From a virus (lineage: Duplodnaviria; Caudoviricetes): a stretch of DNA of 64,000 nucleotides. Each line of letters starts with the position of its first letter. Position 1 is the first letter of the stretch. Under the pieces are notes generated by a model. That model made no database searches, was not told where the DNA came from, and saw only the letters and a list, made by a program, of their open reading frames with translations. Positions 3,759-37,604 of the stretch are shown here, in pieces. Location: the IMG/VR virus record IMGVR_UViG_3300005573_000088, positions 5,237-69,236 of that record; one strand, given 5' to 3'. The translations under genes were made by a program, and so were the position numbers.

Positions 3759-4367
3759 ATGGGTTATCTTATAGATTTAGATGGGATGAGTAGAATAAGA
3801 AGCTTTACTGGAGCTACGACAATACAGCTTCTAAGTGATGAACAGTTAAATTTTTATATAGACACTGAAGAAGCCCTTGTAATGGAGAAAACTGGATTAA
3901 AATTTTATGATACAGAAATAGATGAATGGCATGATGGTGATGGAGAAAATGTTCTCATACTAGATCATTTCCCACTACGAAGTGTTTCTGAAATAGAAAT
4001 AGATGGAGTTTTAGTTGATTCTTGTTGTTACTTTATATATTACGATAAAGGTATGCTATATCTAAAAGATGGATATTTTACTAGTAATATTCACAATGTG
4101 CGTGTAAAATATACGTATGGTGCTCCAGATACATCTGATACAGTAAGATTTAATTTAGCTAAATCAATTGCTTTTAAATCAGTTTCAAAACAAGTTTTGT
4201 TAGAACTTGGAAACCGTGATTCAAAAGGGTTTGTTGAAGAAAAATTGGGGAATTACTCGCTTAGTTATGGTAGAGGTCCATATTACGAAACTATAAAAAA
4301 ACTTGATGAGGATATTGAAAAAGCATATGCTGCTCTTGGAATAACAGTTTCAGCGAAGGTACTATAA
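3759..4367 (+). CDS. Head-tail adaptor/connector
   Basis: Position after MCP; EWHDGDG...LDHFPLRSVSEI...NVRVKYTYG and EEKLGNYSLSY patterns typical of gp6/gp15-like connectors. Confidence 0.7.
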   Translation: MGYLIDLDGMSRIRSFTGATTIQLLSDEQLNFYIDTEEALVMEKTGLKFYDTEIDEWHDGDGENVLILDHFPLRSVSEIEIDGVLVDSCCYFIYYDKGMLYLKDGYFTSNIHNVRVKYTYGAPDTSDTVRFNLAKSIAFKSVSKQVLLELGNRDSKGFVEEKLGNYSLSYGRGPYYETIKKLDEDIEKAYAALGITVSAKVL

Positions 4368-4814
4368 ATGGGATTCTTAAAGACATGTACTCATATTCAG
4401 CATAGAGAATATGGCTATATTAGCGAATATGGCACAGAAATTAATATTAAAGAATTTACTGGGTGGACTGATTGCCCTGATTGTGTGTATGACAATGTAT
4501 ATAAGGCGTCAAAGAATCCAGGGTGTCTAACGTGTGGTGGAAAAGGAAGAATTGCGTCATATAACGATCATATAGAAAAAGTATTTGTTACGTGGGTTAC
4601 AGAAGAAGGTTTAAAGGACGTTGAAGTTGGAGGTGTAAGGGTAGGCGACTGTAGAATTACAGCTAGATACGAAACCCTTGACTGGTTTAAGAATGCTATA
4701 AACAATAAAACTATTCTAACTATTGATGATGTTAAAGTTATATCCAAAACTGTTACGTCTTCAATTCTTAAAACAGTGGTTAATGTCTATGGATCAAGAA
4801 CGGAGTTGAGTTAA
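4368..4814 (+). CDS. Putative head-closure protein with Zn-finger insert
   Basis: Synteny; CPDC and CLTCGGKG motifs. Confidence 0.5.
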   Translation: MGFLKTCTHIQHREYGYISEYGTEINIKEFTGWTDCPDCVYDNVYKASKNPGCLTCGGKGRIASYNDHIEKVFVTWVTEEGLKDVEVGGVRVGDCRITARYETLDWFKNAINNKTILTIDDVKVISKTVTSSILKTVVNVYGSRTELS

Positions 4815-5138
4815 ATGGATGGAGGTAAAAAAATGGAACTAGTAGAAAGAAATAAACGGATATATAATTTATTTAAGAATAAAATGAATTATATGTTCAA
4901 GGAAGTTCTGACACAGGTTGAAAAAGAGACAAAGCAGTTTAATGTAAACACTGATTTTTTTAAAAAACCATCGGGATTTTATGCTATAAGAAAGACGTTA
5001 TTTGATCATGGTAACAGTATTATAGAATTAATGGAGTTGATACTAAGTGAAGTTGAAGTTACCCCATTGAAGTCAATTATAAATATAGATAAAAAATTGC
5101 TTGATGAAGTAAATAAAAAAAATGATTCCAGCAGTTGA
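4815..5138 (+). CDS. Hypothetical protein (neck region)
   Basis: 107-aa ORF abutting neighbours; no recognisable motif. Confidence 0.55.
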   Translation: MDGGKKMELVERNKRIYNLFKNKMNYMFKEVLTQVEKETKQFNVNTDFFKKPSGFYAIRKTLFDHGNSIIELMELILSEVEVTPLKSIINIDKKLLDEVNKKNDSSS

Positions 5139-5871
5139 GACAAAGGTAAGAGTTGTTTTTCCAAAAAAGTGGAGAGCATTAACATTAGGTGTTTCTTCGT
5201 ATGGTAAGGAATTCCCTACAATATTATCATTTGCTATGAACGATGTAAATCAAACTGGAGCGATTGCTACTGGGTATTTACGTTCAATATTGCAAAAAGA
5301 AGTCTATGGTGGAAATGCATCAACTTTACGGGTTGAGGGGGGGAAAGTTTTAGAAGGAAGAAGCGGTCAGTTTTATAAGAGTGTAAGATTAACTCCTGCT
5401 GATAGAGTTGAGGCTATGACAACAAGAGGTATTAGTGGCGTTGGAATAAAAGCTGGGATATTTGATTTAAAAGAAGCAGCAAAAATGACATCACATAGAA
5501 GTAGATATAAATACTATGAGCTACTAGAGAATGGGATACCACCATTTGTGCTATCAACGGAACAGTTAAAAGCATTTTTTGTAATATTAAATGAACAAGG
5601 TTTATACAATAAAAATCTTGCAGAAACATTTAAAAAGACTGGTGGTCCTGGAGGTGTTCATAAGGGCATTGAACCTAAGAGATTTTTTCAAAGAACAATG
5701 TGGTACTGGCATGATATTCTACAGCCACTTATGGCTAACCTGGTTAACAGGTACCTTGACTATGTTATCAGTCAACGATTTGGAGGTAAGATTAAAGAAG
5801 ATGTTATACAGTCTACTGGTATTGGTGGACCTGGTTTTCCAGAAATGCTTTTTAAAATAAAAAAGTCTTAA
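5122..5871 (+). CDS. Putative neck/tail-completion protein (HK97 gp10-like)
   Basis: Synteny; YYELLENG...HKGIEPKRFFQRT pattern typical of gp10-like proteins. Confidence 0.5.
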   Translation: MIPAVETKVRVVFPKKWRALTLGVSSYGKEFPTILSFAMNDVNQTGAIATGYLRSILQKEVYGGNASTLRVEGGKVLEGRSGQFYKSVRLTPADRVEAMTTRGISGVGIKAGIFDLKEAAKMTSHRSRYKYYELLENGIPPFVLSTEQLKAFFVILNEQGLYNKNLAETFKKTGGPGGVHKGIEPKRFFQRTMWYWHDILQPLMANLVNRYLDYVISQRFGGKIKEDVIQSTGIGGPGFPEMLFKIKKS

Positions 5872-5874
5872 TCT

Positions 5875-6375
5875 ATGGGATATCAAAGAGTTCATAATGT
5901 AAAAAAAAGTATATATAATTTCATAAAGAATACAATAAATTCTGAAGGAACATATATTGTTGGAGATGGTGCATCTGAGTTAAGCTTTTATGACTCATTT
6001 CCAGTTGAGCCTACGACATTTAAACAACCATCATTATCTATAGATTTTGCACGAATTGCACCAAGGAGACAGTATGATTTAGGTTGTAGTGCTACATATT
6101 CATATGATTTTGTAATTGACCTATTTGGAAGAAACAATTATGAAGATGAATATATAGCATCCATTATAACAGATGCGTTTGATGGAAAAGGAAAAAATTC
6201 TGGAAAACTCATTGACTATAGTGATTTTAATCTTGATGCTGATGGAGCATGCGTAACTGGAGTAATTTATATAAAAGACGTTAACGCTAACGCAAGGCGA
6301 ATAGAGTCTCCTGGATTGGAATCCGTGTACCGATTTCAGGTGACTTTTATTGCAGAATATAATGATTCATATTAA
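5875..6375 (+). CDS. Putative tail terminator
   Basis: 166 aa just before tail tube; FPVEP...PSLSIDF...FVIDLFG pattern. Confidence 0.55.
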   Translation: MGYQRVHNVKKSIYNFIKNTINSEGTYIVGDGASELSFYDSFPVEPTTFKQPSLSIDFARIAPRRQYDLGCSATYSYDFVIDLFGRNNYEDEYIASIITDAFDGKGKNSGKLIDYSDFNLDADGACVTGVIYIKDVNANARRIESPGLESVYRFQVTFIAEYNDSY

Positions 6376-29977: not shown

Positions 29978-30683
29978 CTTCCTGTATTTGTTCTATAGAT
30001 GGTCTTTGTATTAACTGAATTATGTTTTTATGGAATCTATCAAATTTGAAATTATCACCATAATCAACTACTATCATTGGTATTCCTGTATAGAAAGCAA
30101 GACAAGTTACAGCAGAATGTATTCCTACATATAATTTTGCACTACAAATTGTTTTTAGCACCTCAATCCAAGGCATACCTAACATTGGTGTGCTTCCAGG
30201 TATTATGCGTTCTTCTCTACCACCTATGCTTATCACTGGATATGGAAAATAACAATGGAATAAACTATCAACTCTTTTTATAGATGATATAGAATCTGGT
30301 TGAACTACTATTATATTTTTGCCATTGTGATGTCTATACTCTGATGGCAAATATGTCTCTTCTTCTTTAACTTTCCACTCTGGTTCAAACTCAAATGTTG
30401 ATTTGTAGTTGTCAACTACTTTATCATAATTCTTATAATCATACTTTTTACTATATTTTTCAAAGAAGTCCTTTCGTGAGTTTATGTCAGTAGGAAATCC
30501 ATCATCGTATATATCAAGTTTATCTATCTTATATATCATTTTAAGACATTCCGCAACGTGTTTTTCATAAGTTCCGGTTACCCAATCAATTGCATATCCT
30601 TCATTTTTGAGTTTGTTAAAAACTGGGATCATATGCCAACAATCGCCTACTCTAAGGCCACCTAAAATAACTAATGTTTTCAT
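29955..30683 (-). CDS. Glycosyltransferase, GT9-like
   Basis: GGLRVGDCW; VVQPDS; AKLYVGIHSAVTCLA; convergent with and overlapping the + strand GT2. Confidence 0.65.
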   Translation of the reverse strand: MKTLVILGGLRVGDCWHMIPVFNKLKNEGYAIDWVTGTYEKHVAECLKMIYKIDKLDIYDDGFPTDINSRKDFFEKYSKKYDYKNYDKVVDNYKSTFEFEPEWKVKEEETYLPSEYRHHNGKNIIVVQPDSISSIKRVDSLFHCYFPYPVISIGGREERIIPGSTPMLGMPWIEVLKTICSAKLYVGIHSAVTCLAFYTGIPMIVVDYGDNFKFDRFHKNIIQLIQRPSIEQIQEAIDGFPI

Positions 30684-32386
30684 TTTCCCTGCTGGATTTC
30701 CTTTTCAAATTCAGATTTCATTCTATCTATTTCTTTTTTTATCTTAAGTTCGTATGCTTTCTTTCTAAATCCATCAGTGAGATCTTGAGTTCTCAAAGGA
30801 TTATCTATTGTATATGCTTTTGTATATAATTCTATTGCAGAGTCAAAATCATTTTCTATTTCTGCTATTTCGGCAAGTCCTGCATACGAAAGAAATGCTT
30901 TTGGCTCACGCTTAAGACTTTCATGGAAAAACTTTTTTGCCTCGTCATATCTACCAATATGTTTCATATGAACAGCAACAGAGTGATATGGATAAAAATT
31001 ATTAGGCTCAAGTTCTATCTGCTTTAAGCAAAGCTTGTAGTAGTAGTCAAACTTCTTCTCTAAGTATTCTTTAGGGTTTAAGTAACCAAAATGCAAGAAC
31101 GGCACAGATGAAAATGCAACATTTATTTGTCTTCCTAAATTTAAATCTCTTAAAGATTTGTCAATTTCTTCATGGACTAACCCTGTATATTTTACTCCAC
31201 TATGCCTTCTAAACATTCTTATAGATTGAGAGTGAAACCACTTGGCATTCTTAGTAGTTCTAGGATCTTCAAGAAAATTTCTGACAGGGAATATATATGC
31301 ATCTACTTCGCCAGCACATGCCATATACCATAATTTTAATAAGTCGTCAGGTTCTACCAATTCATCAGCATCAAGACGAATAATCCATTCTTTTGTACTA
31401 TTTTGAATGCATAGGTTTCTTACATATGAAAAATCATGTTTCCATTCTGTTTTAATAATATTGGCTCCATAAGACTTACATATTTCAATTGTGTTATCCG
31501 TAGAACCTGTATCTACAACAACTATTTCATCAACTATTTTTCTAAATAGAGATAATAGTGGACCTATTTGGGATTCATTATTCTTTGTAACAATATTCAG
31601 TGATATAGATACACGATCAGCCCATTTATGCAGTATTATACCTCTTTCGTCTTTTATATGTAGGGCATAGTCCTCTGGATCAAGTTTTTCTTTATTATAC
31701 AGTTTTTTATAATATTCTTCCCAACTCCCAAGTGCAAGAGGAGACACTCCTTTTTCACGATATAAATTTGCATAAAAGTCATATTTCTTTTCTCTTACAT
31801 TACGATCTAAATTTCCGAAATGCCTTATTCTACAGAGTGGCATATGCGTATTAAATAATGAAAACCAAGGCACACATCCACTTAAATTAGTATTATCTGT
31901 TGAAATAGGTTCAATCTCTTGCCCCTCAAGGTTTTTAAACATTCTCTCCTGTAAAAAGTTTCCCCAAAGTCCATCAGCACGCCATTGATTTTCTGAGTCC
32001 CAATGGTGTAGAAGCGGGAATATATAACAAAGAGTCTGGGGATCCTGAGGATTGAGCAAACTATCTATTATTTCATATATATTTGGCTCTTCAAAAATCT
32101 CGTCATGATCAAGACTGCAAATCCATTCTGGATCAAATTTTTTTGCCTCTCTAAGTATAAAATTTCTATCTCTTACTTCGTTGTGATCTTTATATGGGGA
32201 ATTTATAATCTTTACTTTTGAGTATTTTTTGCATTCATTAACTGTCCCGTCTGTGCTATTGTCATTAAAAACAATAATTTTGCTCATCTGTTTAACTCTG
32301 CTGAACTGTCTTAATGTATAACGGATATACGGCATACCGTTTTTTACTCTTATCATGCCTACCAACTTACAACGATACTTTATCAT
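30680..32386 (-). CDS. Double GT2-domain + TPR glycosyltransferase
   Basis: Two GT2 modules (VFNDNSTD...SLDHDE; VVDTGSTD...RLDADE...VHEE) followed by TPR-like helices. Confidence 0.88.
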   Translation of the reverse strand: MIKYRCKLVGMIRVKNGMPYIRYTLRQFSRVKQMSKIIVFNDNSTDGTVNECKKYSKVKIINSPYKDHNEVRDRNFILREAKKFDPEWICSLDHDEIFEEPNIYEIIDSLLNPQDPQTLCYIFPLLHHWDSENQWRADGLWGNFLQERMFKNLEGQEIEPISTDNTNLSGCVPWFSLFNTHMPLCRIRHFGNLDRNVREKKYDFYANLYREKGVSPLALGSWEEYYKKLYNKEKLDPEDYALHIKDERGIILHKWADRVSISLNIVTKNNESQIGPLLSLFRKIVDEIVVVDTGSTDNTIEICKSYGANIIKTEWKHDFSYVRNLCIQNSTKEWIIRLDADELVEPDDLLKLWYMACAGEVDAYIFPVRNFLEDPRTTKNAKWFHSQSIRMFRRHSGVKYTGLVHEEIDKSLRDLNLGRQINVAFSSVPFLHFGYLNPKEYLEKKFDYYYKLCLKQIELEPNNFYPYHSVAVHMKHIGRYDEAKKFFHESLKREPKAFLSYAGLAEIAEIENDFDSAIELYTKAYTIDNPLRTQDLTDGFRKKAYELKIKKEIDRMKSEFEKEIQQGK

Positions 32387-32401: not shown

Positions 32402-32743
32402 TTAAATTCCATAGTATTTTCTAACTCCTTCATATTTGGGTAATCCTGTAAAGAAGTATCTTATCAAAGTTTTTAGATTAAATAAACCTAAAATATATGC
32501 TCTTCTACAAAAATATTTTTTATGAAAATTATCCCTTATTTTATCGTTTTTATAAATTATACCTAGCGTTTTTATAAGGATAGGCATTTCCATATTATTT
32601 ATTTGACATATATGTGAAAGAATAAGTTCAAAATGACTACATACCCATTCACGCTCTTCTATTATCAAATTTTCTTTCCAATTAAATATAATGCATATTC
32701 TTAACACGATAAAAATTATGCCTCCAAATATTATTATATTCAT
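32402..32743 (-). CDS. Hypothetical protein with N-terminal hydrophobic segment
   Basis: 113-aa ORF abutting the upstream stop codon. Confidence 0.45.
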   Translation of the reverse strand: MNIIIFGGIIFIVLRICIIFNWKENLIIEEREWVCSHFELILSHICQINNMEMPILIKTLGIIYKNDKIRDNFHKKYFCRRAYILGLFNLKTLIRYFFTGLPKYEGVRKYYGI

Positions 32744-33208
32744 TTAACCCCCTTTTATATAAAAAACTTCCATTCCTATAGTAGCACCATCTCCATTTCC
32801 ATAGCCATATTCTCCAAAACCATCCCCGTAACCATTTCCATATTCAGCGCCATATCCATATCCATCTCCATATCCATCTCCAAATCTATCTCCATATCTG
32901 TAACCATAACCATCTCCGTACCCGTACCCATCTCCATCTCCACTTCCACTTAAAACAGCATTTCTAAAATATAAACATAATTCTATTCCTATAACTGAAC
33001 CATCACCAGATCCATCTCCATATCCACCAGCTCCATATCCATATCCATATCTATCTCCATATCCATATCCATATCTATCTCCATATCCATCTCCATATCT
33101 ATATCCACTTCCATCTCCATCTCCATCTCCATCTCCATCTCCATAACTATATCCCTCTCCATTTCCATAACTAATAGAAAATTTTAAGTATATATAATCC
33201 TTTCTCAT
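32744..33208 (-). CDS. Gly/Tyr/Asp-rich protein, unit 5 (154 aa; two fused modules)
   Basis: [14 protein letters not shown]-(GX)n-GSVIGIEL then a second (GX)n block ending GATIGMEV. Confidence 0.75.
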   Translation of the reverse strand: MRKDYIYLKFSISYGNGEGYSYGDGDGDGDGDGSGYRYGDGYGDRYGYGYGDRYGYGYGAGGYGDGSGDGSVIGIELCLYFRNAVLSGSGDGDGYGYGDGYGYRYGDRFGDGYGDGYGYGAEYGNGYGDGFGEYGYGNGDGATIGMEVFYIKGG

Positions 33209-33495
33209 ATTTCTGTTCCTATATCTGAACCATTACCAGATCCATCTCCATCTCCATATCCATACCCATATCCATACCCATATCCATTACCATTACCATA
33301 ATTATACCCATCTCCATACCCGTCTCCATTATCATTCACATATCCAAAACCATCTCCACACCTATATCCTTATCCGTCTCCATTTCCATATCCGTTCCCA
33401 TAATCATATCTATAACCATCTCCACCTTCATAACTATACCCACTACCGTATTTATTTTCAATAGAATATTTAAAGTGTGTATAATTTTTTTTCAT
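33205..33495 (-). pseudogene. Gly/Tyr-rich unit 4 with in-frame TAA at codon 42
   Basis: [15 protein letters not shown]-(GX)n, TAA at 33370-33372, then the same frame continues with 54 more GX codons to GSDIGTEI-TGA overlapping the next ATG. Confidence 0.75.
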
Positions 33496-33704
33496 ATTTT
33501 CGTTCCTATATCTGAACCATCTCCAAATCCATTTCCATAGCCATCTCCATTTCCATATCCGCAACCATTTCCATAGCCATCTCCATATCTATATCCACTT
33601 CCATCTCCATTTCCATCTCCATCTCCATCTCCATAACTATATCCATCTCCATTTCCATAACTAATAGAAATAGAAAATTTTAAGTATATATAATCCTTTC
33701 TCAT
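33492..33704 (-). CDS. Gly/Tyr/Asp-rich protein, unit 3 (70 aa)
   Basis: [16 protein letters not shown]-(GX)n-GSDIGTKI. Confidence 0.75.
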
Positions 33705-33901
33705 ACTTCTATTCCTATATTAGCACCATTTCCAAAATCATCTCCATGTCCATATCCATTTCCTTTACCATCTCCATAGCTATGTCCGTCACCATATCCA
33801 TAATTATACCCATCTCCATGCCCCTTCCCATTACCATCTCCATAACCATCTCCATAACCATTTTCTATACATTGTTTTAAACAATTATAATCCTTTCTCA
33901 T
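33701..33901 (-). CDS. Gly/Tyr/Asp-rich protein, unit 2 (66 aa)
   Basis: [14 protein letters not shown]-(GX)n-GANIGIEV. Confidence 0.75.
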
Positions 33902-33981
33902 ACTTCTATAGTAACACCTTCCCCATTTCCATTTCCGTACCTATATCCATACCTATATCTATCCGTATTAACGTGTTCCAT
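33898..33981 (-). CDS. Short Gly/Tyr-rich peptide, unit 1 (27 aa)
   Basis: Hand translation [27 protein letters not shown]; TGA overlaps the ATG of unit 2. Confidence 0.5.
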
Positions 33982-33983
33982 AA

Positions 33984-34175
33984 CTATTTTCCTATTTTCA
34001 ATAATCCTTTTAACTTAGGTATATGAATAATACAGGATTCAAGTTCACCTAAAGCAAAGAGTATTTCTTTATCTTTACTTTCAGCAGTCACTAGCTTATG
34101 TTCTGTGTCTACTTTGTTAACTTTTATAACCTTGTCCGTACCCAATAACTTATAGTACTCCCCTTTAACTAACAT
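33984..34175 (-). CDS. Hypothetical protein (63 aa)
   Basis: MLVKGEYYKLLG... with upstream GGAAGGA SD; the longer called ORF is probably over-extended. Confidence 0.5.
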   Translation of the reverse strand: MLVKGEYYKLLGTDKVIKVNKVDTEHKLVTAESKDKEILFALGELESCIIHIPKLKGLLKIGK

Positions 34176-34431
34176 ATTCCTTCCATCCTTTCTTGGAACA
34201 CGCAATAGTTGCAATAACATTAGTCCAAGCAAACTGGACTACACCATTGCAAGGTTCCAGTATAGTTTCTTTTGTAGGACCATCTTGGGCTAGTTCCCCT
34301 AATCCTTTTGTTGTACCCCACTTCCTTATTACATAAGCATTCTCTAAAGTACAATCTCCTGTACTACCATCCTTCTTAAAATTTCCTACCATCACCCATC
34401 CTCTGTCCAAAATACAAATTCTTAGATCCAT
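34165..34431 (-). CDS. Small conserved phage protein of the kind found next to Gly-rich repeat genes (DUF6948-like, from memory)
   Basis: ICILDRGWVMVG...NAYVIRKWGTTKGLGELA.DGP; family label is unverified recall. Confidence 0.5.
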   Translation of the reverse strand: MDLRICILDRGWVMVGNFKKDGSTGDCTLENAYVIRKWGTTKGLGELAQDGPTKETILEPCNGVVQFAWTNVIATIACSKKGWKEYVS

Positions 34432-34496: not shown

Positions 34497-35732
34497 CTAC
34501 GTCTTTAGATTTTTTATTTGTATTAGTATCCCCCATGGTGGTTTGTTACTTAAGTTTCCTTGTGAACTGCATACCCACAATACTTCATAAGGTGGACGTT
34601 CTTTAGGATAAGTACAATATAAATCCGTAAAGTAGATTAATAAATCATGTTTCAAATTATGCTTTTCTATATATTCAAGGACAGGTTCATAAGCTGTACC
34701 TCCTCTACCTTTGAACTTTGCGCCTATCTTTGAATATGGTTTCAATTTATATATCTTCTGTATTTCTGCATCGCACTCTATTACTGTAGTCTCGTTCTTG
34801 TAACAAGCCATGATACTTTTTATTTCAGATATAAACTCTATAAAATCTCTACTTCTTATTGAACCTGAAGTATCTATTGCTAAAACACATTTCAGTATCC
34901 TTACTGGCAAATGGCCTTTTTGATTTTCTCCAAACCTTCTACTTATTCTTTTCCAAGAATGTTTACTTGCTGCTTTAACACTGTTCCCTACAAACATTCT
35001 CAATAACTGTTTCCAACTTATCGTAGGTGGTTTGAGCCATTCTTTTATTGCTTCCTCAACATTACCTGGAACATATCCTCTATTCTTTTGAGTTTCTTCA
35101 TAAGCTTGCTTTATAGCTTGTTTAATTATTTCCTTCTTTAATTCATTACTAACACCATTACTCATTTCCTCCCACCCTTTATGAGAATCAACAACTTTCT
35201 TCTTCCCATTAGGTGTTCCAATTTCAATTTCAAAATCTCCCTGCCCTTTTCCTTGTCCATTATCACTTAGTGCCTCTTGTGGACAACATATAGGTTTTAT
35301 TGTTATTTTGTACTGTTTAATATTCCTTTTCAAGAGTTCGTAATAAAATTCAGCGTGTTTGTCTTCTGGAAAATTAAACTGTTCAGGAAATACCGCCCAC
35401 TTAGGTAATCCTTGTATCATCTGATTAATCGCCATATCACAGCTGATATTCCATACCGTTTGTGATTTATCTTTACATCTTAACGGATGTTCAAAAACTA
35501 AGTGGAGGCATTCGTGTTCCATTATTGCTATTAGTTCTTTCAAAGTAATCAATTCAACAATCTTTGGATTTATTATAAGCAAAATCTTCCCTTTATCTAC
35601 TGTTACACCTACAGACATACAGTTTTCGTCTTCTATCCTTATCATCTGTAGTAACAGACTCGTATAGAAGACCTTGCTTTGTTCCCTTAACATGTCCACT
35701 ATTGCAGCTTCAACTTTACTTATTGCTCCCAT
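34497..35732 (-). CDS. DUF2201-type HExxH metallopeptidase-like domain + vWA domain
   Basis: MEHECLH...WNISCDMAINQ; C-terminal AIDTSGS (MIDAS), GRGGT and YFTD. Confidence 0.88.
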   Translation of the reverse strand: MGAISKVEAAIVDMLREQSKVFYTSLLLQMIRIEDENCMSVGVTVDKGKILLIINPKIVELITLKELIAIMEHECLHLVFEHPLRCKDKSQTVWNISCDMAINQMIQGLPKWAVFPEQFNFPEDKHAEFYYELLKRNIKQYKITIKPICCPQEALSDNGQGKGQGDFEIEIGTPNGKKKVVDSHKGWEEMSNGVSNELKKEIIKQAIKQAYEETQKNRGYVPGNVEEAIKEWLKPPTISWKQLLRMFVGNSVKAASKHSWKRISRRFGENQKGHLPVRILKCVLAIDTSGSIRSRDFIEFISEIKSIMACYKNETTVIECDAEIQKIYKLKPYSKIGAKFKGRGGTAYEPVLEYIEKHNLKHDLLIYFTDLYCTYPKERPPYEVLWVCSSQGNLSNKPPWGILIQIKNLKT

Positions 35733-35744
35733 TCGACCATCTCC

Positions 35745-36776
35745 TTATTTTAAACTATCTTCCTTGGCAGCTTTCTGTACTTGGTTGATTATTGAAGCCA
35801 TCTCTTCTACGAGTTTTGTTTTACTCAATTCAATTAGTATCGTTTCTGGTAAGTTACTAATGATCTCAACTTTCCATTCAGCTTTTGTATTTAACAAGTA
35901 ATCATTCAGATTCTCTATCTCACTTTTCCTTAATTTACTTTTACTAATATAGTTAACCAAATCTCTTGCTGTGACCCAGTTCTCGTCGTTCCTTTGTTTA
36001 CTAAGTTTTTCCTTTACTTTGTCATAATGTTCTAATATCTCTTTTCCTGTTACTGGCTTCTTGTATTCTTTGTCACAGAACTTTTGAAATGTTACTGCTG
36101 CTTCTTTTCCAACTAATCCTGCACTAACTTCGAACAATAGTTCATCTGGTACAACTTTTAATTCATTTGACAACAAGTGCCATGTACGAGGAAGTGGACT
36201 TGGTTCATTTTCTTTTGGTTGACATAAAAGATCTCTGTGTACGCTTATAAACTGAATTATCCTATCATCTAATTTCTTTTCATATGCAAACTTAAGCCAT
36301 TCGTCTACATCATAATCAAGTTTAACTTTGATACATCTACTTATCATTGCGGGGTCAAGATCCGAAACATGATACATCGAATCACTTGGATTGATACATA
36401 AAACAATTATTGTTTTTGCAGGTAATTTGTGTGTATGGATTTTATTTTCTGTCAGCGCTTGGAATATTGCTTGTTGTACGTCTATTGGAGCTCGGTTCAG
36501 TTCCTCTAACGCTAAAACTAATTTAGCGTTTTCTTCAGGCATCCATGAAGGTCTGCTCCAAATAGTTACTCCATCAACAACTCTTGGCATTCCTATTAAG
36601 TCGCCTGGTTCTTGTTGCGCTAACCTCAAATCGACGTACGTGTACCTTAATTCCTCAGCGACCTGTTGTACCACTTGACTTTTTCCGATTCCCATTTCAC
36701 CTTCAATGATAATTGGTGCAGGTTTATCCAACCTAGTGTGAGACTTAATCAACTCTTTTAATTCATGGATCTTCAT
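35745..36776 (-). CDS. MoxR-like AAA+ ATPase
   Basis: Walker A GEMGIGKS, Walker B LALEELNRA, LDPAMISR, SPLPRTW. Confidence 0.88.
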   Translation of the reverse strand: MKIHELKELIKSHTRLDKPAPIIIEGEMGIGKSQVVQQVAEELRYTYVDLRLAQQEPGDLIGMPRVVDGVTIWSRPSWMPEENAKLVLALEELNRAPIDVQQAIFQALTENKIHTHKLPAKTIIVLCINPSDSMYHVSDLDPAMISRCIKVKLDYDVDEWLKFAYEKKLDDRIIQFISVHRDLLCQPKENEPSPLPRTWHLLSNELKVVPDELLFEVSAGLVGKEAAVTFQKFCDKEYKKPVTGKEILEHYDKVKEKLSKQRNDENWVTARDLVNYISKSKLRKSEIENLNDYLLNTKAEWKVEIISNLPETILIELSKTKLVEEMASIINQVQKAAKEDSLK

Positions 36777-36794: not shown

Positions 36795-37604
36795 TCAAGT
36801 ATTTCCTTTGGGATATTCTTTTACCCAATCCTCCTTGTTACAAAAACATTCTTTTTGCTCATATTCTTTCCACCACTTTCTAAATTTCTCTGCCATTTCC
36901 TGGTATTTTTTACCTAGGTCTACTTGATTTGACTGAAATGTCTTTTGTCCATAGTGCCATATGAATGTTGATCTATCAACAACCATTTTCCAGCCTTTAT
37001 AGAGTGCCTTTAGGCACACAATATTATCCTCATACATTGTAAATCCATCTGGAAATGGGAGACACTCTTCAAAACACTGTTTTTTAAACAACATACAAAG
37101 TCCAACAAGAACCCCTTCTCTTGTCATGCTTCCTACCATTTTTCTTCTCCACTCATCAGAAAATTTATTGAATTCCTGGAGTTCCATAAATGGAATACCA
37201 ATTCTATATCCTTGTTCGCCCCCAGCACAATTTGATACTGGTCCTACGATTCCTATCCTTTCATCTTTTAATGAACATTTTATCATTGAATCGAGCCATC
37301 CCTGTCCTACTAGTGTATCATTATTCAAAATACATATATAATCGTATTTTATGTTGTGTTCCTTTATGTATTTAAAGGCTTCATTATGCCCGCTTGAAAA
37401 ACCAACATTCCTTGGCAAATGAATGACAGTTGCTCTTGGAAAATTATTGACAAACCAGTTTAAATATTGTTCTGTTCCATCGGTGCTTCCATTGTTGACA
37501 ATTATGATCTCAAAATTGTAGTCTGTATTTTTGTATAGTGAATCTAACATCCATATTGTGTATGGAAGCGCATTCCAACATATAGTTGTTATAATAGTTT
37601 TCAT
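36795..37604 (-). CDS. Glycosyltransferase, GT2
   Basis: IVNNGSTDGT, NVGFSSGHN, ILNNDT, GIVGP, YEDN, FIWHYG. Confidence 0.9.
   Translation of the reverse strand: MKTIITTICWNALPYTIWMLDSLYKNTDYNFEIIIVNNGSTDGTEQYLNWFVNNFPRATVIHLPRNVGFSSGHNEAFKYIKEHNIKYDYICILNNDTLVGQGWLDSMIKCSLKDERIGIVGPVSNCAGGEQGYRIGIPFMELQEFNKFSDEWRRKMVGSMTREGVLVGLCMLFKKQCFEECLPFPDGFTMYEDNIVCLKALYKGWKMVVDRSTFIWHYGQKTFQSNQVDLGKKYQEMAEKFRKWWKEYEQKECFCNKEDWVKEYPKGNT

Follow-up and report, generated by a model that had tools for sequence, protein, structure and literature searches.

A tandem array of small Gly-X dipeptide-repeat genes in a phage genome and its relation to a widespread two-gene DUF6948 module

We analyzed a 64,000-nucleotide (nt) stretch of phage DNA, here called the window, taken from a 69,236-bp IMG/VR virus record with direct terminal repeats (IMGVR_UViG_3300005573_000088). 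On its minus strand, from 33981 down to 32744, the window carries a chain of small open reading frames (ORFs) whose products alternate glycine with a second residue, mainly Asp, Tyr, or Asn (Gly-X). It is very probable that this array is translated and that it belongs to a module in which a Gly-X gene follows a gene for a small protein of the Pfam family DUF6948. The DUF6948/Gly-X module is widespread among phages and is of a kind undescribed in published knowledge; a literature search found no paper mentioning DUF6948. The array may be a locally amplified and diverged version of the module's second gene that acts with the DUF6948 protein, a predicted Sm-like partner, although we would give this more specific reading somewhat less than an even chance.

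A scan of IMG/VR with two short patterns alone returned 363 loci, of which 80 were kept and 64 had at least 400 nt of DNA downstream of DUF6948. A Gly-X frame starts at the end of the DUF6948 gene in 63 of these 64. Searches by tblastn with the DUF6948 protein identified it in three lineages of sequenced phages, namely Rheinheimera Barba phages (115 genomes), Rhodobacter phage RcapNL, and a myovirus from Manatee Spring (MW202613). In one genome from each lineage (Barba1A, RcapNL, and MW202613), the next gene is an ORF of 69 to 104 amino acids (aa) rich in Gly-Tyr, Gly-Asp, and Gly-Asn, which is annotated as "lamprin" in MW202613. The reverse search gave the same picture, as three proteins found via a Gly-X stretch alone all lie directly behind DUF6948. 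An earlier interpretation of the window, the sequence-only reading, had treated the array as self-contained; its constant partner across phages is instead the upstream gene for the Sm-like DUF6948 protein, which is also present upstream of the array on the same strand of the window.

In the canonical module, the start of the repeat gene overlaps the DUF6948 stop, most commonly by 19 nt (39 of 66 loci), and the repeat protein opens with the head (K/R)(R/K)TINFE(D/E)SQ, which is conserved as a peptide beyond the overlap. Median values for the repeat proteins of 61 relatives are 41% Gly, 16% Tyr, 14% Asp plus Glu, and 2% Lys plus Arg, with an isoelectric point (pI) of 4.05, and the last residue is Tyr, Trp, or Phe in 47 of 66. 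The pairs Barba1A gp018/gp017, RcapNL gp47/gp46, and MW202613 UOF79294/UOF79295 have the same partner family as the window (41 to 46% identity by tblastn) and share with it the strand, the gene order, and an acidic Gly-Tyr/Asp/Asn dipeptide-repeat product of 60 to 120 aa. These phages have a single repeat gene beginning inside the DUF6948 end, a KRTINFE-type head, an aromatic last residue, and GGC as the only Gly codon, whereas the window has five to seven units behind an orphan ORF, with MRKDY heads, IG.E[VI] tails, and mainly GGA.

Further evidence that the Gly-X frame is translated comes from three proteins of about 210 aa (P0091, P0115, and P0089; Table 1), in which folded C-terminal domains follow the repeat in frame. 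Two unrelated domains share the layout of a head plus a Gly-X stretch preceding them, which suggests that the repeat is able to link a head to a cargo. A search of the ESM Atlas with the C-terminal domain of P0115 returned only unnamed viral clusters (at 0.89).

To look for additional members of the module, ORFs within 3.5 kb of DUF6948 were clustered across the 80 loci. No third conserved family was found in more than 8 loci, with one exception: in 26 loci, minus-strand ORFs that overlap the DUF6948 gene itself formed a cluster, which we take for an antisense shadow. Multi-unit arrays are a minority among the 64 loci, being limited to L056 with six units and L086 with two. The sequence-only reading had proposed searching phages for variation in unit number and for conserved neighbors; the former exists and DUF6948 is such a neighbor, but the module has no third conserved gene.

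The repeat and its partner evolve at different rates. The closest homologue of the window's DUF6948 protein (64% identity) is accompanied by an ordinary single Gly-X gene, and two ENA loci with identical DUF6948 proteins (L089 and L090) encode Gly-X proteins of 80 and 79 aa that differ in repeat order and in the last residue. These comparisons indicate that the repeat turns over much faster than the partner at the level of the family. The proposal of a hypervariable repertoire therefore holds for the family but not within the window's phage population, where the array is stable and almost invariant. We aligned the window with an ENA contig (L005, 72.5 kb), a JGI contig (L006, 31 kb), and a further contig (L007). 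Comparison of the whole array among three independent assemblies showed only two differences, a 24-nt in-frame indel (Table 1) and a single-nucleotide polymorphism (SNP) at 32771, indicating that the array is not an assembly artifact. The indel, the only one among the three, agrees with the prediction that length can change without a frameshift. The exact DUF6948 protein of the window is also present on contigs from other samples.

Assembly across the repeats is nevertheless fragile, and short-read assemblies apparently break at the hexanucleotide repeat. In two runs, Logan contigs of the window phage are broken inside the repeats, at 33039-33109 and 33536-33606, and accordingly reveal neither transcripts nor variants in unit number. 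Of the 80 loci, 16 lie on contigs that stop less than 400 nt after DUF6948, several of them less than 100 nt after it, as expected if the repeat breaks assemblies.

The match of the window's DUF6948 protein to Pfam PF22253 (E value, 5e-5; 23.8 bits) falls short of the gathering score, 27. At E<1e-5 the protein has 83 homologues, many of them flagged PF22253; the best match other than itself is at 1e-27. The alignment of the homologues contains an invariant R.WGTT.GLG core. An AlphaFold2 model built from a 30-sequence alignment has a predicted local distance difference test score (pLDDT) of 93. A Foldseek search of the PDB with this model placed first 3BY7, a metagenomic "Sm/LSm-like" protein (E 1.6e-4; template modeling score [TM] 0.65-0.72), followed by SmB, SmD3, and LSm chains (E 1e-3 to 1e-2; TM 0.5-0.7) and by archaeal Sm chains. 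On the basis of this model, we predict with confidence that DUF6948 adopts an Sm-type five-stranded bent barrel. Promoter and terminator scans of the window found sites no more numerous than in shuffled sequence; a terminator-like hairpin at 34221-34241 on the minus strand, with 8 pairs (3 of them G-C), lies within the 3' part of the DUF6948 gene and is probably due to chance.

The array itself consists of units designated U1 to U5 in order of transcription (Table 1). Much of what the sequence-only reading described was confirmed. Consecutive ORFs are joined by ATGA stop/start overlaps at 33901, 33704, 33495, and 33208, with a frame shift of -1 at each of these four junctions. The head M[RK]K[DN]Y..[LF]K..I, attributed to most units, is found in U2 to U5, with only U1 deviating, and the tails follow the pattern G.G..IG.[EK][VI]. 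Between head and tail, the cores are nearly strict Gly-X: among 99 G-X-G hexamers, X is Asp in 35, Tyr in 28, Asn in 18, and Ser in 6, and aliphatic and basic residues are rare at X. The strictness claimed earlier is broken by two register breaks in U4 and three in U5. Each of the five frames has its own start and is rotated by one base, and all of them read Gly-X and none Met-Glu or Trp-Arg, a regularity beyond chance. The Met-Glu and Trp-Arg frames were rejected as real genes, as they have neither heads nor Shine-Dalgarno sequences and other loci read different residues there.

An AGGA motif lies exactly 8 nt 5' of the ATG in U1, U3, U4, and U5; U2 is the exception to the earlier claim that this spacing precedes every start. 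The idea that the units are modular, with each tail carrying the translation signal of its neighbor, was borne out, and the unrelated six-unit array L056 (IMGVR_UViG_3300027688_000925, 3761-5993) follows the same logic. Like the window array, those of L056 and L086 have a constant head and tail, and their tail codons GGAGTAGGTTAT-TGA-N3-ATG supply the ribosome-binding site of the next unit (GGAG in the L056 tail). Unlike the window, L056 has a canonical MKIAINFEDSQ head, a constant GVGY tail ending in Tyr, a 3-nt spacer in place of the ATGA overlap, and an unrelated ORF of about 190 aa that interrupts the array. The window units are real small genes, each with its own initiation, that termination-reinitiation links into a chain.

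New units arose through duplication of a block comprising the tail with its Shine-Dalgarno sequence, the start, the head, and the core. U3 and the first half of U5 (U5a) share about 150 nearly identical nt, apart from a 6-nt indel, indicating a recent duplication, as had been suspected for the units starting at 33704 and 33208. Some units have since decayed, through a nonsense codon in U4, fusion in U5, and shortening of U1. Of the five ORFs originally listed (27, 66, 70, 96, and 154 aa), the 27-, 66-, 70-, and 154-aa ORFs stand, but the "96-aa" ORF is a 41-aa frame plus a 54-codon remnant separated by an in-frame TAA, and the 154-aa ORF is not one unit but two fused units. U5a retains an internal tail, VIGIEL, and the stop at the junction has been lost, while U5b has a degenerate head and the tail TIGMEV followed by FYIKGG. 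The U4 TAA occupies an X position, one base away from the Tyr codon TAT, and the remnant beyond it contains a weak GTG start at 33339. The TAA is present in all three assemblies compared and on contigs of two further runs. Recoding of this codon was rejected, since half of the phage's long ORFs (16 of 32) end in TAA, its main stop codon. The fixed nonsense codon in one unit and the fusion of another indicate that individual units are dispensable.

Table 1. Features of the array, its neighbors, and fused Gly-X proteins in related loci
Feature	Position	Strand	Description	Basis
DUF6948 protein	34165..34431	-	88 aa, one ORF upstream of the array	Homologues, Pfam PF22253, predicted fold
ORF63	33984..34175	-	Orphan, 63 aa; ATG overlaps DUF6948 stop by 11 nt; ends KIGK	
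U1	33898..33981	-	27 aa; deviant head MEHVN, tail VTIEV	Sequence
U2	33701..33901	-	66 aa; tail NIGIEV, ATGA overlap with U1, no AGGA of its own	Sequence
U3	33492..33704	-	70 aa; tail DIGTKI, ATGA overlap, AGGA-N8-ATG	Sequence
U4a	33370..33495	-	41 aa; head and short core, closed by in-frame TAA 33370-33372	Sequence
U4b	33205..33369	-	54-codon U4 remnant past the TAA; core and tail DIGTEI, in frame with U4a	Sequence
U5	32744..33208	-	154 aa; fusion of two units	Sequence; U5a/U3 near-identity
U5a	32978..33208	-	First unit of the U5 fusion	
U5b	32744..32977	-	Second unit of the U5 fusion	
Length polymorphism	33067..33090	-	24 nt (8 codons), in frame, inside U5a	Absent from one independent assembly
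113-aa protein	32402..32743	-	Hydrophobic N terminus; starts directly after U5; no Pfam family; context gene	
P0091	L093:296-931		Gly-X N-terminal part and folded C-terminal domain shared with P0115	
P0115	L094:3001-3630		Gly-X N-terminal part and folded C-terminal domain shared with P0091	
P0089	L095:426-1049		Gly-X N-terminal part and C-terminal DUF7666	

The products of the units are similar in composition to those of the canonical module, with 32 to 39% Gly, 12 to 19% Tyr, 14 to 16% Asp plus Glu, and a pI of 4.05 to 4.7 (the short pieces U1 and U4a differ). Their heads and tails are not. The sequence-only reading had suggested a profile search for these motifs in other phages, and an exhaustive HMMER search of 1.84 billion representative proteins with a profile of the units gave only 31 weak matches (at most 44 bits), each resting on the Gly-X core; no sequence other than the window's own U4a carried the MRKDY head or the IG.E[VI] tail. 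A word-indexed search with U3 returned four compositional look-alikes and did not recover U3 itself, and is thus uninformative on head or tail conservation. The last codons of ORF63, the orphan between DUF6948 and the array, are ATA GGA AAA TAG and place an AGGA 8 nt before the U1 ATG. The recurrence of ATAGGA at the end of ORF63 makes it probable that the "IG" of the unit tails is at least in part under constraint for ribosome binding. ORF63 belongs to no Pfam family, has no homologue but itself, and resembles neither DUF6948 nor the C-terminal domains of the fused Gly-X proteins.

Codon usage bears on whether the repeat is maintained as peptide or as nucleic acid. In 54 of 59 canonical loci, Gly in the repeats is encoded almost only by GGC (median 97%), compared with a median of 25% in flanking ORFs, and this dominance holds even in AT-rich phages of 28 to 36% GC (loci L010-L088). 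Within each locus, the third base of the Tyr, Asp, and Asn codons at X is nearly always C or nearly always T. The GGC bias points to rapid slippage-driven homogenization and possibly to a preference at the nucleotide level. The window is an outlier, in which GGA makes up about 70% of Gly codons, with GGT, GGG, and GGC also used, matching the phage's own codon usage. That the window keeps the Gly-X pattern with different, mixed codons argues for selection on the peptide. A neutral microsatellite had been contrasted earlier with a Gly-X frame kept across homologues, and the frame is indeed preserved with different codons.

How the units might work with their partner can be framed as a mechanism of tails supplied in trans. 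The unit products would be intrinsically disordered acidic chains with a pI of about 4. AlphaFold2 gave U3 a pLDDT of 34 and a predicted TM of 0.12, with only low-confidence strands; the low pLDDT is compatible with disorder but is no proof of it. The barrel or ring of the Sm-like protein would serve as the docking site for the constant head, and the Gly-X chain would provide a flexible, polyanionic, Tyr-studded tether or a competitor of nucleic acid. Early in infection, such a tether could tune or extend the binding of the partner, much as SSB, T7 gp2.5, and Hfq are modulated in cis by their own acidic tails, and amplification of the units would raise dosage or valency. This is the mechanism we favor on present analysis, tentatively and at less than even odds.

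Sm, LSm, and Hfq proteins carry low-complexity tails, including the Arg-Gly repeats of SmD1 and SmD3 and the acidic or Gly-rich C termini of Hfq. The phage module resembles them in combining an Sm-type barrel with a dipeptide-repeat or acidic disordered segment. Their tails are part of the same chain and are basic (Arg-Gly) or short, whereas the phage repeat is a separate, translationally linked, acidic protein. Similarly, the acidic disordered tails of single-stranded DNA (ssDNA)-binding proteins such as T7 gp2.5 and E. coli SSB compete with ssDNA for the OB domain and recruit partners (PMC10359462). Here too a small beta-barrel is joined to a flexible acidic tail, and canonical Gly-X proteins end in an aromatic residue after acidic ones. 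The SSB fold is OB rather than Sm, however, its tail is in cis and has no strict dipeptide repeat, and the window units end in Val or Ile, so that this is a resemblance only.

Several observations weigh against the reading of the array as an amplified second module gene that acts with DUF6948. No significant sequence-level relative of DUF6948 was found by a profile search of PDB sequences, nor any LSM Pfam match, and binding to the units, nucleic-acid binding, and ring formation by DUF6948 are all putative. DUF6948 cores are only mildly basic (median pI 8.5), so charge complementarity with the repeat protein is weak. In the window, the array is uncoupled from DUF6948: ORF63 sits at the coupled position, and 184 nt separate the DUF6948 stop from the start of the first Gly-X unit. 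A hidden Markov model of 33 canonical heads scores U2 to U4 no better than shuffled sequences, 75 to 214 of 300 shuffles reaching the real score. The window C termini (V, I, I, and G) are largely aliphatic instead of the usual Tyr, Trp, or Phe, and one unit has a fixed nonsense codon while another is fused. Finally, the extreme use of a single Gly codon in canonical loci hints at nucleotide-level forces as well.

Among the alternatives, the one that survives best, although we consider it unlikely, is that the units are free-standing decoys. In this case, acidic Tyr-rich chains alone would mimic nucleic acid or act as a sponge for host DNA/RNA-binding or defense proteins, and DUF6948 would be merely a co-regulated neighbor or chaperone. 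The very acidic composition and predicted disorder are consistent with such a role, Gly-X genes lie among early and replication genes in several phages, and the window array is uncoupled from DUF6948 and multiplied, as a dosage-driven sponge would be. However, Gly-X genes are tied to DUF6948 both genetically and translationally in nearly every locus (63 of 64), which is difficult to account for without a joint function.

The repeat proteins could also form a material. In the [G/S]Y[G/S] low-complexity domains of the FUS family and in silk-like (Gly-X)n sequences, Gly alternates with Tyr, Ser, or Asn, and the composition of the phage proteins is similar. [G]Y[G]-type stickers might then drive condensates, gels, or silk- or amyloid-like beta-sheets that compartmentalize or shield phage replication, and strict alternation would place all Gly on one face of a strand. 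We think this quite unlikely. The phage repeat proteins differ in being strongly acidic, high in Asp, tiny, and stand-alone, which leaves a likeness in composition only. Their negative charge (14 to 16% Asp plus Glu against 2 to 8% Lys plus Arg) opposes self-association without counter-ions or a basic partner, and the U3 model shows no confident structure.

A further possibility is that the array is for the most part a nonfunctional leftover of slippage and duplication, whose frames stay open only through the rarity of stops in GGN-NAY repeats. The fixed TAA in U4, the fused U5, the truncated U1, and the register breaks fit this explanation, as do heads and tails found in no other sequence. 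It is nonetheless improbable: heads, starts, AGGA-N8 spacing, and ATGA overlaps are kept in four of the five units, every rotated frame reads Gly-X, aliphatic and basic residues remain rare at X, and the three assemblies are identical but for the one in-frame indel and one SNP.

We give similarly little credence to the view that (GGN-NAY)n acts as RNA or DNA and that the peptide is secondary; the tract would then, for instance, offer the Sm-like protein an array of binding sites on its own mRNA, or be a hotspot of recombination or slippage. The nearly GGC-only Gly codons and the locus-uniform third base of the X codons are in keeping with such an element. The sole published mention of such a tract also treats it as DNA: in Iodobacter phage phiPLPE, (KMGCCG)35, a 210-bp "GC-rich repeat," was reported as a DNA repeat and speculative attachment site (PMC3391216, Table 3). 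Compared by the published tract alone, its complement would read GGC-[TAC/GAC/TCC/GCC], that is, Gly-X. Against this, C-terminal domains that follow the repeat in frame require it to be translated, the window writes the peptide pattern with different and mixed codons, and heads are conserved as peptide beyond the DUF6948 overlap.

The window has a GC content of about 33%. The structural genes occupy the plus strand as far as about 30 kb, and the minus strand carries replication and early genes. No close relative of the phage was found in the INPHARED phage collection or in IMG/VR, and queries of IMG/VR with the window's GT2-TPR and DUF2201 proteins likewise found no close phage relative. Two hot-spring metagenome DNA runs contain DNA nearly identical to the window; no RNA run is listed. 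The module is flanked on the minus strand by genes for a MoxR-type AAA ATPase and a DUF2201 metallopeptidase-VWA protein (34497-36776) and by a double GT2+TPR glycosyltransferase and a single GT2 (30680-32386 and 36795-37604). PHROGs labels the DUF2201 family "HNH endonuclease," a label that the Pfam domains do not back. The 113-aa gene downstream of U5 has no counterpart in the 80 related loci and is unlike the C-terminal domains of the fused Gly-X proteins.

The sequence-only reading had also offered leader-plus-core precursors as a role. The units, with constant heads and low-complexity cores of variable length, lie on the same strand between the MoxR/DUF2201 genes and the double GT2+TPR gene, and could in principle be precursors akin to ribosomally synthesized and posttranslationally modified peptides, with, for example, the GT2-GT2-TPR enzyme adding sugars and the DUF2201 metallopeptidase-VWA/MoxR pair carrying out the processing. 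This is the least credible of the alternatives, since no enzyme of any kind recurs near DUF6948/Gly-X in the 80 loci (neither the GT2-GT2-TPR, 113-aa, ORF63, DUF2201-VWA, MoxR, nor GT2 gene has a counterpart there, so the idea rests on adjacency in one genome), MoxR/DUF2201 pairs are frequent in phages without Gly-X genes (515 records), and neither a transporter nor a cleavage motif is evident.

Returning to the favored reading of tails in trans, a broader version of it, which we regard as doubtful, is that phages widely use a split machine made of an Sm ring and a detachable dipeptide-repeat tail. The heads would dock on a DUF6948 oligomer to form a polyanionic, Tyr-studded brush that mimics or competes with single-stranded nucleic acid or nucleates a condensate, and so controls phage or host RNA/DNA transactions or blunts defenses. 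If this is true, arrays like that of the window would tune valency and diversify tails rapidly by slippage.

The module spans hundreds of uncultured phages (the 363 IMG/VR loci) as well as the cultured Rheinheimera Barba phages and Rhodobacter phage RcapNL, and its repeat genes have so far been unannotated, misnamed "lamprin," or read as DNA repeats. The breaks that they cause in assemblies matter for viromics. In the module, a small barrel that is highly conserved is combined with a protein sequence that ranks among the simplest and fastest changing known in phages, which makes the module a tractable system for the role of dipeptide-repeat, Tyr-rich disordered proteins in bacteria. Within this family, the window represents a natural experiment in which the repeat gene has been uncoupled from its partner, multiplied, given new heads, and has partly begun to decay.

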